This document shows, one piece after another, positions 12,001 through 36,000 of a DNA stretch of 64,000 bases. Every line of letters begins with the position of its first letter. The first letter of the stretch is position 1. The stretch lies in IMG/VR virus record IMGVR_UViG_2913147268_000005. One strand, written 5' to 3'. The position numbers were made by a program. This DNA is from a virus. Taxonomy: Duplodnaviria; Heunggongvirae; Uroviricota; Caudoviricetes.

Positions 12001-15000
12001 AAAGCGCGGTTAACGACTGACCCCGTCAGCGGGCGGCGTGCGCGGTGTTCCGGTTTGACTCCGTGACCGTTTACACCGCGCACCCACCGCCCGATTTTTT
12101 CAGGAGTGAACCCCATGAGTATGGTTGCCAGAACTAACCCCGGCCCCGCAGAGGACGACATCACCGACACCGATGATGGCGATACCCGTATTTCAGCGGG
12201 TGCATTCTGGCCGGATATTGTGCTGCGCGAGCTGCGTCTGGCGGTACGACTGCCGGGCCGCGTGACCACCTCCCGCCTGCTGCATACCGCCACCGGGGCC
12301 ATAGCACACGTTACCCGCGAGCTGGAAGCATGGCAGCAGGAACAACAGGCGGCTGGCTATCAGACGCTGGCCGATGTTCCGGCCCCTGTAATTAACGGAG
12401 AAAGCGTCAATCTCTGGCACTGGCGCAATGCTGTTTATACCGCCACACGCGCCCTGATTCTGGAGCGTTACCGCGATGCGGACACAACGGACAAGGGCGA
12501 CCGCCGGGCGGACGCACTGGATATACAGACATCGGATTTGTGGCGCGATGTGAGCTGGGCCATCTCTGACATTCTGGGACGACCGCGAATGTTTGCGGAG
12601 CTGTGCTGATGAAAGTGAAGGCACTGGAAGGCGACACCGTGGATTCGCTCTGTTTCCGGTACTACGGCACGACACAGGGCGTCACCGAAAAGGTGCTGGA
12701 TGCCAACCCCGGACTCTGTCAGCAGGTATTTCTGGACGCCGGGCAGGAAGTGGAGATGCCGGAGCCGGAGAAGAAGAAACGAGAAATGATTCAGTTGTGG
12801 GGGGAGTAGCAGTGAGCACCATTCAAACAGGGATCACAGAGCAGGTTATTGCGTGGCTCTTTGACCACCTGCCAACGGTGTATGCAGTAGGCGCGGCGGT
12901 CAGCATTTCCGCGCTGATGAGTCTTTATGACGGACGAACACTGGTTCAGACCGTAACGGGATCGCTGGCGTGCGGCGTTCTTGCCATGGCCGTGGCCGGG
13001 TCGCTGCGCTTCTTCGGGATCCCTGAGGATGCAGTGACGTTTTTTGGTGCCTCAATCGGTTTTATGGGCGCAGAGAAAGCACGCGACAAGGTTATTGCAA
13101 TATTTGATCGCAGGGTGAAGGAGAGGAACGAATGAGCAACACATTTAAATTCAGCAGCCGGAGCGAAAAGAATTTGCAGGGTGTAAATCCTGATCTGGTG
13201 AAAGTGACCCGACGGGCGCTGGAAATCTCGGAAGTGGATTTTGGTATCACCGAAGGATTGCGCAGTCGTTATCGTCAGAAGCAGCTCGTGACCACAGGCA
13301 AGAGCCAGACCATGAACAGTCGCCATCTCACAGGGCATGCCGTGGATGTTGTGGCTTATGTCGGCAACCAGGTGTCATGGGAATGGCCGCTGTACGAAAA
13401 AATCGCAGCAGCATTCAGACAGGCCAGCCAGGAACTGAATATTCCGGTGGAATGGGGCGGCGACTGGAAGACCCTGAAAGACGGACCGCATTTTCAGTTA
13501 CCACACGGAGCCTATCCGGCATGAAGCTCTGGCCCACGCTTGGCGTCGCTTTCCTTCTGATTACATCCATGCGTCTGTCGTGGTCGCTGGGCCGGGAGAA
13601 CGCCAGAAACGAAGCGCAGGCCAGCACCCTGAAAAGTACCGTCGACACACTGAATATCATCAGCGCCGGGGTACAGGATATGCAGCAGGTGCTGGCTCAG
13701 CTCCGCGCGGAAAATCAGCAACGCAATCAGGACGGAGAGGTAAGACGTGAACAGCTACGCAACGATATTGCAAAAGATGAATGCGCCCACGCTTTGCCTG
13801 ACGCTCGTTTTACTGACAGGTTGCGCAGGCACGCAGAACGCGCCAGGGCCAGCGCCGTCAGTCCGGCTTATACCGCAGACGCTGACCATGCCGGTAACGC
13901 CTCCCCCCTTCCCTGACCCACCCACATGGGGAAACCTCGGAATATGGGGCGACCGCCTTCTGGATGCACTGGAAACCTGTAACGCGGATAAACGGGCCAT
14001 TGCTGAACTGGATAAGAGAATAGCCGAACTGACACACCAGACGGGAGTAACACAATGACCAGTAAGAACTTTGCACTGATTACAGCCATGACACAGGCTG
14101 AACTGACTCAAAAGGTGAATGAACATCTTGCGAAAGGGTGGCATCTTCAGGGGGAGACGCGGGTTGCCTACGAACCCGGCACCCCGTGGTATCTAATGCA
14201 GGCAATGGTGGCCGATGGCACTACAGACATCTCACCTGATTCCCCCCAGCACGGCAGCGTGCCGGAGTGGTATTACGTGGTGGTACTTGCTGGTCAATCC
14301 AATGCCATGTCATATGGTGAGGGAATGCCGCTGCCGGATTCTTACGATGCGCCCCACCCACGCATTAAGCAACTGGCCCGTCGCAACACAGTGACTCCCG
14401 GTGGTAAAGCATGCGCATTTAACGACATCATTCCGGCAGACCACTGCCTGCATGATGTTCAGGATATGAGCGCACTGAATCACCCGAATGCAGACCTGAG
14501 CAAAGGGCAGTATGGCTGTGTCGGACAGGGCTTGCATATTGCCAAACGCCTGTTGCCTTACATTCCACAGAATGCCGGGATTTTACTGGTTCCATGCTGT
14601 CGTGGTGGTTCGGCATTCACCCAGGGCGCGGAGGGGACATTCAGCGAGTCCACAGGAGCCAGTCAGGATTCGGCTCGCTGGGGTGTGGGTAAACCTTTAT
14701 ATCAGGACCTGATTTTGCGCACGAAGGCCGCATTGCAGAAAAACCCAAAAAACATGCTGCTGGCCGTATGCTGGATGCAGGGCGAATTTGACATGAGCGC
14801 CGCTACGTACTCACAGCAACCTCCGCTGTTTACGGCCATGCTGAAACAGTTTCGTGCGGACATTACCGAGTTTAACACGCAGTGTCATGGAGGCAGAGCG
14901 GCAAGTGTGCCATGGATTTGTGGTGACACGACGTATTACTGGAAAAACACCTACGGCACGCAGTACGACACCATTTACGGGGCGTACAAAAACAGGGAGA

Positions 15001-33000: not shown

Positions 33001-36000
33001 ACAATAAAAAAAGCCACCAGTTAAGTACTGATGGCTCTGATAACTCATGCAGGCATCTCAGACGACCCACTGACACTACCGGTGAGTTTAACGATACCTT
33101 CCATTTGACTGGCTCACTTTTTATGATGATGCCGGTGCATTTATCTCCAGCACCAGACTTTCTATCTCAACGCCATACGTTGCATTTTTGGTAATATCCG
33201 TCAGCGTCAGCGCATTCAGCCCCAGTGTCAGACTGTNNNNNNNNNNTGGTGCATTTATCTCCAGCACCAGACTTTCTATCTCAACGCCATACGCTGCATT
33301 TTTGGTAATATCCGTCAGCGTCAGCGCATTCAGCCCCAGTGTCAGACTGTCTTTTATGACCTGGAATGCCGGGCCAGCCACTCCATTCAGTTTCGGAGTA
33401 ACCGTGGCACTGCCGGCGGTGAACACCAGCTCCAGCGTCTGCCAGTCGTTACTGTAATTCCCGAACTCGCCCAACTTTGTGTTTCCTGCTTTCTTGTGAT
33501 GCATCAGATTCAGTTTGCCGTCTGTGGTCTGGGTGAAGAACGACATCAGGAACGGGTTACCAGTCCCGGTCATCGCCACGACGTCAGGTAACGCTACATC
33601 GGTATACAGATAAATTCCCAGACCGAACTGATTGTTGGTCAGTGCGCCTGACAGTCGAAACTTACAGCTCAGTCTGCCACCCCGTGTCAGCAGGGAGACT
33701 GCGTCATCCACCGGATGCATCAGGGACCAAGTTTTATTGCTCTGCTTGGTAACCTTAAACACACCATCTTCCAGCGCAACACTGCCGCCGGTGATGGTCC
33801 AGCCCTGCGCAGCAGCCTCTCCGGCTGTCGGCAGCAGGGAGACTGTACGAACGGATGTGTCACCATCAGACGGCCCCGATGGAGTGTCGCCGCCGGGCGA
33901 GGGTTTGATTTCCGGTGCCTTACCACTAATGAAGGCTAATCGCCCGCAGCCATCACTGACCGCGGGCGAAAGTGTAAAGCAGGTGCCTTACCACCCTGAC
34001 CTGACAACCGGATATGCGGGGATTACTCCCCGCACAACGGCTACTTCTTCGGTTCGTAAGCGAGAACAGCCTTAAACTCAATATTACGTTCCTTCACCGT
34101 AAACTCACACAGCGAGTCTCCGACCAGAAGCGTAAATCCCAGCACCGTCAAACACAGCACTATGACTGCCGCAAGGGCATATTTCGTCAGCATGTTTATA
34201 TTGCCTCCATGCGAAGAAGGGACTACCATCCAAATTGTCGTTGCGAATGATAAAGCAGTTGGATGGAACTGGAGTAGCGGAGCCTATAACGCAAATATTG
34301 GTGGTGCATCAACGTTAATTATTCATTTTTATATGGGAGACGGAAGTTGTCCTGCAGCTCAGTTTCGGATTAATTATAAAAATGGCGGTATTTTTTAGCC
34401 GGCAGCATGCATCCACCCAGCCCGACAGCAGTGAACGGCTCAGCTCCACACCTTGCCGGCCGTATATTTCTGACTGGCGATACAGCGGGGTGTGCTCTGC
34501 ATACTTCGAGGTCAGCACGCGGGCCAGCAGCCCCGGTCCGGCGATACCCCGCTCGATGGGCCGCGAAGGTGCAGGTGCCTGCACGATGGCATCGCACTGA
34601 GTACAGGCATGTTTTTCCCGTACCGTCCGGATAACCCGGAAGGCGCTACGCATCAACTCCAGCTGTTCGGCGGTATCCTCGCCCAGATAGCTCAGTGAAC
34701 CGCCGCAGTTCGGGCAGCACGGCGCCGCAGGCAACAGTCGCTTTTCGTCACGGGGTAGTGATTCAGGGAACGGCTTACGGGTGCGGGTCTGACGCAACGG
34801 ACGCTGTACTGCCGGGTCATACACCCTACCAGTCAGCGTATCGCTCTCTTTGAGTTTCGGGAGCCGCGGTTTTGACGTTTTGCGGGGACCTGCCTTTTGT
34901 TCCCTCCGGTATTCACCATCACCTTTTTGAGAACCTTCGCCGCAAGGGGCATCACTGCCACGGCCGGAAACGACTGTCCGGGGGCAGACCGCAAAAGTTT
35001 TTGCCTGCTTCTGGGCAAAAAGTTTTGCGGGATGTCGTGGCAGAACGTCCTGACCAGCTGTGGGTGGCTGATTTTACTTACGTCAGCACATGGCAGGGCT
35101 TCGTCTATGTGGCGTTCATCATTGATGTGTTTGCCGGATACATCGTGGGGTGGCTGTCTGCCGGGCGCACCTTCGGCTCCCGGCTGCCTGGCGGCATCCG
35201 GTCGTCAGGCCCGACTCCGACAGGCAGCTGCTGGCGCACCTGCCAGTCTCCGCCGAACCCGCTGGCGCGGTTTCGGGCTGTTGCTACGGTCCGATGCGTG
35301 AAAACCCCTGGCTTGCAGCGACCGTTCCGGTCGCGCCGCCTCTGTCGCGCCGTGACCTGCGCTCCCGGCATCCCGGCAAAAGGCGCCGGGATGTAAGGCG
35401 CAACGCCGTTTCGCAAACCGCGCTTCACGTCGTTGCGGCGGGTCCCTGCCCGTTGTTCTTTGACATATTAGGGGCTATTCCATTTCATCGTCCAACAAAA
35501 TGGGTGCAGTACATGGTGGTTAATGAAAATTAACTTACTACGGGGCTATCTTCTTTCTGCCACACAACACGGCAACAAACCACCTTCACGTCATGAGGCA
35601 GAAAGCCTCAAGCGCCGGGCACATCATAGCCCATATACCTGCACGCTGACCACACTCACTTTCCCTGAAAATAATCCGCTCATTCAGACCGTTCACGGGA
35701 AATCCGTGTGATTGTTGCCGCATCACGCTGCCTCCCGGAGTTTGTTCGGCACCATCCACCGCTCCATCTCACGAACAGCATGACCGACCACCCTTGCCGC
35801 CATACCAGCCTCTGCGATGACCTGCCAGAATGGCATATCCTGCCACTGCCAGCGTTCCATTCCGGCCAGTGACGGAAAACGCTCGCCCCACTGCCAGAAC
35901 AGGGTTTCCAGGTCATGCTCTGCCACCCGGTCACTCCAGCGTGCATACCAGCTTCCGACTGTTTCCGGCGAATGGAATGCCAGTTCGATTTCAGCCTGAG

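Follow-up and report, generated by a model that had tools for sequence, protein, structure and literature searches.

An apparently split nanS-p-like esterase gene at an inverted 68-nt repeat in a prophage scaffold, very probably an artefact of short-read assembly

Genes and pieces in the window

The window, a 64,000-nt stretch of a tailed-phage record (IMGVR_UViG_2913147268_000005), is a short-read scaffold with four runs of N (31806-32045, 240 N; 33237-33246, 10 N; 47406-47415, 10 N; and 59234-59471, 238 N), two of which lie within the block that separates two parts of a nanS-p-like esterase, one of them inside the esterase C-terminal fragment (Table 1). Positions 1-15301 carry genes for gpA (replication), portal, terminase, GPO scaffold, P2 capsid, gpM, holin, M15 endolysin and LysB/LysC, followed by the 5' part of an esterase gene, with Pfam matches to Phage_GPA (replication protein A), Phage_GPO (capsid scaffold), Phage_cap_P2 and Phage_term_smal. 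A first-pass annotation had taken this flank as lambdoid; these genes and the identity to strain JJ1886 show that it is P2-like instead. JJ1886 is an ST131 strain, and its P2-like prophage has an intact esterase gene of 625 aa (L001 15056-16933). The lysis cassette of the P2-like prophage itself lies upstream of the esterase gene, where a plus-strand ORF (14055-15518) matched the DUF1737 and SASA domains of Pfam. This N-terminal half is the P2 allele, with 100% nucleotide identity to JJ1886 and only 75% amino acid identity to the lambdoid allele.

Table 1. Pieces and features of the window around the split esterase
Feature	Position	Strand	Basis or best match
P2-like prophage contig piece	1-15301	+	99.993% identical to JJ1886 L001 1003-16302
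Esterase N-terminal part, nt 1-1247 of the P2-type nanS-p-like gene	14055-15301	+	Pfam DUF1737 and SASA
Left repeat copy	15234-15301	+	Final 68 nt of the P2-allele contig
Lambdoid (HK97/lambda-type siphovirus) late-region contig piece	15302-31805	-	99.988% identical to ST131 strain 4/0 L002 11999-28504
Scaffold gap, 240 N, within lysozyme gene	31806-32045		N-run
Contig with lysozyme 5' end, YdfR, holin and final 115 nt of the lambdoid-allele esterase	32046-33236	-	99.9% identical to L002 28818-30008
Scaffold gap, 10 N, within esterase C-terminal region	33237-33246		N-run
Third-allele esterase fragment	33247-33939	-	DUF6645 lectin-like C-terminal domain; about P2-gene nt 1180 to near the stop codon
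Right repeat copy	33872-33939	-	Initial 68 nt (coding sense) of the third-allele contig
hok/sok-type module	33940-34238		100% identical to L006 4002-4300
Internal tail-fibre gene scrap, 159 nt, read as a single k=57 unitig	34239-34397	+	100% identical to the alternate tail fibre of the JJ1886 P2-like prophage (L001 24197-24039)
Small-contig chain	34397-48561		IncF plasmid leading region (psiA, psiB, ssb), IS66/IS100 pieces, permuted ST131 island pieces
Lambdoid early region (Q, RusA, replication, cI/cro, exonuclease)	48558-61722	-	99.96% identical to L004 11607-22283

In an ST131 lambdoid prophage, the late region is colinear with the block from 15302 to 33236 and matches it at 99.9-100% identity. 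As far as 31805 the block contains the 5' part of gene L, M, tape measure, tail, head, portal, capsid and terminase genes, the Rz region and a partial lysozyme gene. Gene L (15234-15569, minus strand) had been described as cut at the repeat, and this was confirmed, as its ORF runs into the repeat and matched only profile positions 3-62 of the 206-position Phage_tail_L. The earlier proposal that the block is colinear with a lambdoid early region also held, the early region of the same ST131 prophage type being found at 48558-61722, with 99.3% identity past the 238-N gap. The block is interrupted by the N-runs at 31806-32045 and 33237-33246 and hence is not continuous sequence. The annotation of the ST131 copy of the block, which is 99.99% identical, lists no recombinase, and none was found among the ORFs of the window between 15.3 and 34 kb.

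At the far end of the block, a minus-strand stretch (33121-33939) matched DUF6645 of Pfam. The fragment 33247-33939 is 100% identical to NZ_OZ121077 and 99.9% identical to prophage 3 of strain AVS0753, but only 94.9% identical at the nucleotide level to the ST131 lambdoid allele. The two sides of the 10-N gap thus carry different alleles, the lysis contigs matching the ST131 prophage at 99.9-100% identity. The third-allele fragment belongs to another contig than the lysis and structural genes, and it reaches the block only through the 10-N scaffold gap, which is flanked by near-identical contig ends of 103 nt (33134-33236 and 33248-33350). No ORF in the window united DUF1737, SASA and the C-terminal lectin-like domain, since 14055-15301 has only the first two and 33247-33939 only DUF6645; all three are present in the intact reference gene at L001 15056-16933. 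The premise of a single lambdoid nanS-p gene cut in two, as first proposed, is wrong, as the N-terminal half is cargo that the P2-like prophage carries behind its own lysis genes, and the C-terminal half comes from a different paralog.

Beyond the esterase fragment, the hok piece begins and ends exactly where the homology of approximately 300 nt shared by two tandem ST131 copies of hokE does, and it was therefore read as a collapsed repeat node. The tail-fibre scrap differs from the lambdoid stf gene by SNPs at offsets 57, 62 and 103, which gives it the form 56+47+56. Between 34 and 48.6 kb, exact overlaps of 54-59 nt, as well as one of 60 nt with one mismatch, were found at far-apart piece ends, and three island pieces that are contiguous in strain TO60 stand permuted. 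When the right junction was searched on plasmids, the plasmid matches started no earlier than 34397, in the IncF leading region.

Spacing of piece ends and nature of the inverted repeat

The inverted 68-nt repeat is present in the sequence, with 66 of 68 positions identical, and the number of such inverted matches expected by chance is 0. The first-pass annotation was thus right about the existence of the repeats and their two mismatches, although its coordinates (15236-15303 and 33869-33936) were 2-3 nt off. Both mismatches are allele-specific SNPs.

We compared each piece end with the nearest paralog-discriminating SNP, seeking one constant k-1 offset; the paralogs that located these SNPs were from other strains (4/0, AVS0753) and not from the source genome. 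Seven ends lay exactly 56 nt from the nearest paralog-specific SNP, namely 15301 (SNP at 15245), 15302 (15358), 31805 (31749), 33236 (33180), 33939 (33883), 34239 (34295) and 34397 (34341). The last SNP that separates the esterase fragment from the lambdoid allele thus lies 56 nt before the fragment's end, and the lambdoid piece starts 56 nt before the first SNP against a paralogous L gene. Every junction boundary that has a comparable paralog fits this value (15301, 15302, 33939 and both ends of the tail-fibre scrap), and the same spacing was found at 31805 and 33236, which abut N-runs and are independently contig ends. Against the paralogs compared, it was not seen at the N-flanked ends 32046 and 33247. 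The latter, on the 10-N side of the third-allele fragment, terminates on an allele-specific base and not 56 nt past it, for which trimming by the scaffolder is the only explanation that we can offer. Such constant spacing is what marks the contig ends of a de Bruijn assembly at k=57, suggesting that this was the actual assembler setting.

The repeat follows the same arithmetic. Its length equals the overlap between two k=57 contig ends (2x57-46=68), and both of its outer limits are such ends, which abut unrelated contigs without intervening Ns. Judged from the sequence, the repeat, although present, is an assembly product rather than a biological structure, and the break of the esterase at 15301 is to be read as a contig end and not as a mutation. 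In the references, the P2 and lambdoid esterase alleles are identical for 606 nt beyond 15245, yet the window switches from esterase to gene L after 15301, the joint sharing only 2 nt. At the esterase/hok joint (33939/33940), 1 nt is common.

Neither junction was covered in any of 5,426 complete E. coli genomes. A 36-mer across the left junction (GACACGCCATCGGGGCCCGGTGACCAGACCGAACAG) had no match in genome, viral and metagenome contig collections, and a 38-mer across the right junction had none in genome and metagenome contigs. Exact look-up of the fusion products, i.e. the 487-aa esterase-L read-through, the 111-aa truncated L and a 169-aa ORF spanning IS66 and the tail-fibre scrap, found none of them on record.

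Proposed origin of the split gene and alternative explanations

Taken together, the sequence features indicate that the split esterase is very probably a short-read assembly artefact, in which fragments from three similar esterase genes of prophages were placed one after another. A mis-join in assembly had been one of the two alternatives named in the first-pass annotation, and it is favoured by repeat limits that are k=57 contig ends and by a right copy that is linked only across the 10-N gap. The source genome would be ST131-like, with at least three paralogous nanS-p-type esterase genes, carried by the P2-like prophage, the lambdoid prophage and a second lambdoid prophage. A k=57 de Bruijn assembler would be unable to continue an allele-specific contig for more than 56 nt once the final paralog-distinguishing base has been passed. 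The P2-allele contig would then halt at esterase nt 1247 (SNP 1191 + 56) and the third-allele contig would begin at nt 1180 (SNP 1236 - 56), so that the two ends would overlap by the 68 nt of the repeat and differ at just those two SNPs. Later scaffolding or gap closing would have set contigs end to end, some with Ns and some without, abutting the P2 contig onto the start of the lambdoid contig within gene L, and the third-allele fragment onto the collapsed hok repeat, while tying the latter fragment to the holin contig over 10 Ns. If so, the true sequence after 15246-15301 would be esterase (GTCTGAAGATGCATCC...), the esterase and L genes would be intact in the real genome, and reads would be expected to lack support across 15301/15302 and 33939/33940.

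There is a slim chance that the adjacency of the contigs nevertheless mirrors a true physical link, the 606-nt identical tract having mediated an exchange between the P2-like and lambdoid prophages that gave a hybrid prophage or a chromosomal rearrangement, which the assembler then garbled. It is also very unlikely that the joints are scars of illegitimate recombination, one of them fusing the P2-like esterase to the lambdoid gene L by deletion, tandem duplication or translocation and the other joining a further esterase copy to hok. Both joints are free of Ns and show the 1-2 nt of microhomology that is typical of illegitimate joints, and since they came from the assembler, some read or link evidence may exist for them. 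However, nothing would place true breakpoints exactly 56 nt away from paralog SNPs at each side of either joint, or give them a spacing in common with N-flanked contig ends; the adjoining scraps of 300 and 159 nt are graph nodes, and the joints are missing from all other genomes searched. Moreover, a deletion between the two prophages would be lethal, because they lie approximately 0.5-1 Mb apart in ST131 references.

Homologous recombination of the RecA type, inverting the 18.6-kb block between the 68-bp copies or longer esterase homology, was the other alternative of the first-pass annotation, and we consider it extremely unlikely. An inverted repeat is indeed present, the 606 identical nt shared by the P2 and lambdoid reference esterases would be a good substrate, and inversions bounded by prophages have precedent in E. 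coli O157. Such an event requires esterase sequence on all four flanks, but it is found on only two; gene L occupies the inner left flank and hok the outer right one, where the overlaps are only 2 and 1 nt, respectively. Flipping the block back would merely move the L joint to the other side and leave an equally non-homologous joint of L, repeat and hok. With respect to the early region, the order of the block is already the native one. In addition, the repeat limits are contig ends, and no continuous sequence leads from the block to the right copy, as the N-runs at 31806-32045 and 33237-33246 intervene. That inversion would restore an in-frame gene, expected to be intact at approximately 630 aa, is a trivial consequence of the paralogy of the halves.

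A programmed segment, inverted by a site-specific recombinase as an on/off switch for esterase expression, has a vanishingly small probability: inverted repeats do flank the block and a Cin/Pin-like recombinase is indeed encoded close to the tail-fibre genes of the JJ1886 P2-like prophage, but that region is absent from the window, the ST131 copy of the block has no annotated recombinase, the repeat copies are allelic gene segments and not crossover sites, and the contig-end evidence counts here too.

Three further candidates were rejected. The 2-nt microhomology had suggested that a true deletion, tandem duplication or circle formation joined the P2-like prophage to the lambdoid one, but this was discarded because both sides are k=57 contig ends. 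A deletion from the third prophage into a neighbouring hokE was dismissed since AVS0753 has no hok gene within 20 kb of that prophage's esterase and because hok here is a repeat collapsed into one node. An amplification chimera is unneeded and would not yield constant 56-nt offsets.

Comparison with known systems

De Bruijn contig ends at paralogous repeats have the features seen here, with the same k-1 boundaries, nodes collapsed at the limits of homology and overlaps of about k-1. The window likewise resembles cases of short-read mis-scaffolding in its N-runs of 10 and approximately 240 nt and in joints that occur in no other genome, but differs in that several joins are free of Ns and look like true sequence. 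Such N-free joins of contig ends in draft scaffolds can mimic split genes, inverted repeats and invertible blocks, which calls for caution, and checking boundaries against paralog SNPs for a constant k-1 offset reveals them from the sequence alone. The underlying biology would be ordinary, with several prophages of an ST131-like E. coli each carrying a nanS-p-type esterase gene.

In the prophage-bounded chromosomal inversions of E. coli O157:H7, similar prophage genes in inverted orientation can recombine; the homology involved spans kilobases, and all four flanks remain homologous, whereas the flanks here are unrelated and the limits are contig ends.

NanS-p sialate O-acetylesterases are encoded by Stx and other lambdoid phages, among them 933W and phi24B (gp84) (PMC10462455; bioRxiv 10.64898/2026.04.10.717836). 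The N-terminal fragment in the window instead belongs to a P2-like prophage, with the gene placed after lysC, a context that these two sources do not describe. The window holds no complete copy, as its contigs end within the gene. In lambdoid prophages, nanS-p-type copies lie between the Q region and the holin gene, and the intact reference genes have the same three-part architecture of DUF1737, SASA and a C-terminal lectin-like domain as the NanS-p esterases.

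Provenance of the sequences around the repeat

The stretch contains an inverted repeat of 68 nt with two mismatches (15234-15301 on the plus strand and 33872-33939 on the minus strand), for which the chance expectation is none. The repeat and its flanking esterase and gene L sequences were as described in the first-pass annotation, with the coordinates shifted by 2-3 nt, and the ORF starting tail gene L matched the Phage_tail_L profile (positions 3-62 of 206). The same annotation had regarded the two esterase parts as one gene split in two, which was not borne out. The N half (14055-15301) is the P2 allele, with 100% nucleotide identity to ST131 strain JJ1886 and only 75% amino acid identity to the lambdoid allele, while positions 33247-33939, containing the right repeat copy, presented only 94.9% identity to the ST131 lambdoid allele and 100% to a third allele, of which NZ_OZ121077 and a second lambdoid prophage of AVS0753 provide examples. 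The two halves are thus two different paralogs, and we consider it very probable that the split esterase between inverted repeats is not a real feature.

The left flank, previously taken as lambdoid, is P2-like, as indicated by its match to the P2-like prophage of JJ1886 (window 1-15301, 99.993% identity) and by its gene content, comprising replication gene A, portal, terminase, GPO scaffold, P2-family capsid, gpM, holin, M15 endolysin, LysB and LysC, with the lysis genes upstream of the esterase. The JJ1886 esterase is intact (625 aa, DUF1737-SASA-DUF6645) and is flanked by lysC and tail gene R. The block (15302-31805 and 32046-33236) presented 99.9-100% identity to the lambdoid late region of ST131 strains 4/0 and 21319, and since the early region of that phage type occupies 48558-61722, the block is already natively oriented relative to the early genes. 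In the complete genomes of both strains, a separate esterase gene of the lambdoid prophage, intact and encoding 617 aa, is located between IraM and the holin.

Two other observations were made on this prophage. Its integrase end (61723-64000) is of the tRNA-Ser/mtfA type, with 94.9% identity to strain 21319, while in the early and late regions its identity to the ST131 prophage integrated at ompW is 99.9-100%; judging from the sequence, this is the same phage backbone with a different integration module. In addition, a 162-nt unit is repeated in tandem at least three times at 22591-23196 (copies 88-94% identical), within an 861-aa gene annotated as portal protein, and the ST131 reference prophage has these units too.

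Contig ends and their distance from paralog SNPs

From its four N-runs, the window can be recognised as a short-read draft joined by scaffolding. At the 10-N run at 33237, 103-nt contig ends on either side differ at one base, and the contig to its left, carrying the lysis genes and the final 115 nt of an esterase, is the ST131 lambdoid allele (99.9%). The right esterase fragment is therefore attached to the block by scaffolding only. No complete esterase copy is present within the window, and the copies are incomplete only because contigs stop inside the gene. Unlike these, the third-allele esterase of the complete AVS0753 genome (19989-21871 of region L008) is a genuine damaged nanS-p-type gene, 5'-truncated and adjoining a DNA methyltransferase gene that is itself truncated; the annotation marks both as partial.

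The three esterase alleles and the other paralogs were aligned, and each boundary was measured against the nearest allele-specific base.

Features of the window and offsets of contig boundaries from paralog SNPs
Feature	Position	Strand	Nearest allele-specific base	Offset (nt)	Remark
N-run	31806-32045				240 N; interrupts lysozyme gene
N-run	33237-33246				10 N; within esterase C-terminal region
N-run	47406-47415				10 N
N-run	59234-59471				238 N; interrupts exonuclease region
ORF	14055-15518	+			DUF1737 and SASA domains
Stretch	33121-33939	-			DUF6645
ORF	15234-15569	-			First ~90 codons of tail gene L, reading through into repeat
P2 esterase stops	15301		15245	+56	vs lambdoid allele
Gene L starts	15302		15358	-56	vs L gene of AVS0753-type prophage
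Third-allele esterase fragment ends	33939		33883	+56
Tail-fibre scrap (159 nt), two ends	34239 and 34397		34295 and 34341	-56 and +56
Contig end at N-run	31805		31749	+56
Contig end at N-run	33236		33180	+56

The common offset of the seven ends points to a single k of 57; a de Bruijn contig at k=57 reaches this far into paralog-shared sequence. The tail-fibre scrap, 100% identical to the alternate tail-fibre gene of the JJ1886 P2 prophage, differs from the lambdoid tail-fibre gene by SNPs at offsets 57, 62 and 103 (56+47+56). The two repeat mismatches are the SNPs at nt 1191 and 1236 of the esterase, 46 nt apart inclusive, so that with k=57 the repeat length follows by arithmetic (57+57-46 = 68). 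Moreover, homology among the esterase alleles extends well beyond 68 nt, with 606 identical nt in the P2 and lambdoid alleles, and the repeat limits are therefore set by two breaks and not by the end of homology. These are the junctions at 15301/15302, where P2 esterase and gene L share 2 nt, and at 33939/33940, where third-allele esterase and a hok module share 1 nt. By our reckoning, inferred rather than computed, only about one biological break in several hundred would fall at exactly +56 in the 606-nt identical tract. Coincidence does not explain seven concordant ends.

Neighbouring pieces and alternative explanations

The hok piece (33940-34238) has the exact extent of the ~300-nt homology between two tandem ST131 hokE copies, with limits as a collapsed repeat node would be expected to have. 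In strain 4/0, two tandem hokE-type modules (3500-3799 and 4001-4300 of region L006) are 98.7% identical over ~300 nt. From 34397 the scaffold continues with an IncF plasmid leading region, then IS100, IS66 and island pieces. Positions 34397-37900 (psiA, psiB, ssb and DUF905) are 99.9% identical to plasmid NZ_CP130448 and are probably a misplaced plasmid contig, the rest of the scaffold being chromosomal. At 38002-46850, three island pieces are permuted with respect to strain TO60, where they are contiguous (21178-21690, 21631-27601 and 27545-29190 of region L005). Distant piece ends repeatedly share exact overlaps of 54-59 nt; for the TO60-type pieces, common ends of 57-60 nt reveal the true adjacency.

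Among the 5,426 complete E. coli genomes searched, none spanned either junction, and neither junction sequence had a match in the genome and metagenome contig collections; the left-junction 36-mer was likewise unmatched in viral contigs, and an exact look-up of the fusion ORFs found none on record.

Very likely, the source genome carries an intact esterase gene in a P2-like prophage, another in one of its lambdoid prophages and a third copy, which may lack its 5' part as in AVS0753, in a different lambdoid prophage, with gene L very likely intact as well. Shared sequence (the 3' region of the esterase, along with portions of L, lysozyme, tail fibre, hok and IS elements) would have collapsed in the graph, after which allele-specific contigs would have been strung end to end. 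One or more true illegitimate joints are improbable, as they would need to mimic contig ends on both sides at both joints. Inversion by exchange within the repeat, as formerly proposed, is less probable still and finds no support, given that two of the four flanks are not esterase sequence and that the L joint is simply relocated when the block is flipped. A site-specific invertible segment hardly merits consideration, no recombinase being annotated in the ST131 copy of the block.

NanS-p-type genes in two prophage types

Apart from the assembly artefact, two by-products of the analysis are real, namely a nanS-p-type gene in the P2-like prophage (14055-15301; 15056-16933 of the JJ1886 prophage region L001) and a tract common to the P2-like and lambdoid copies. 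In the ST131 references, the two esterase genes (the lambdoid one at 29893-31746 of the strain 4/0 prophage region L002) are 100% identical over the 606 nt of L001 16247-16852 (P2-gene nt 1192-1797) but only ~82% identical in their 5' parts, a pattern suggestive of recent recombination or gene conversion between prophages of two unrelated types.

By sequence, the esterase genes can be placed in the NanS-p family of prophage sialate O-acetylesterases, whose architecture comprises DUF1737, recently assigned as a capsid-binding/decoration domain in the phi24B T=9 capsid, a SASA catalytic domain and a lectin-like C-terminal domain, and whose nanS-p genes were described from lambdoid or Stx phages (PMC10462455; bioRxiv 10.64898/2026.04.10.717836).
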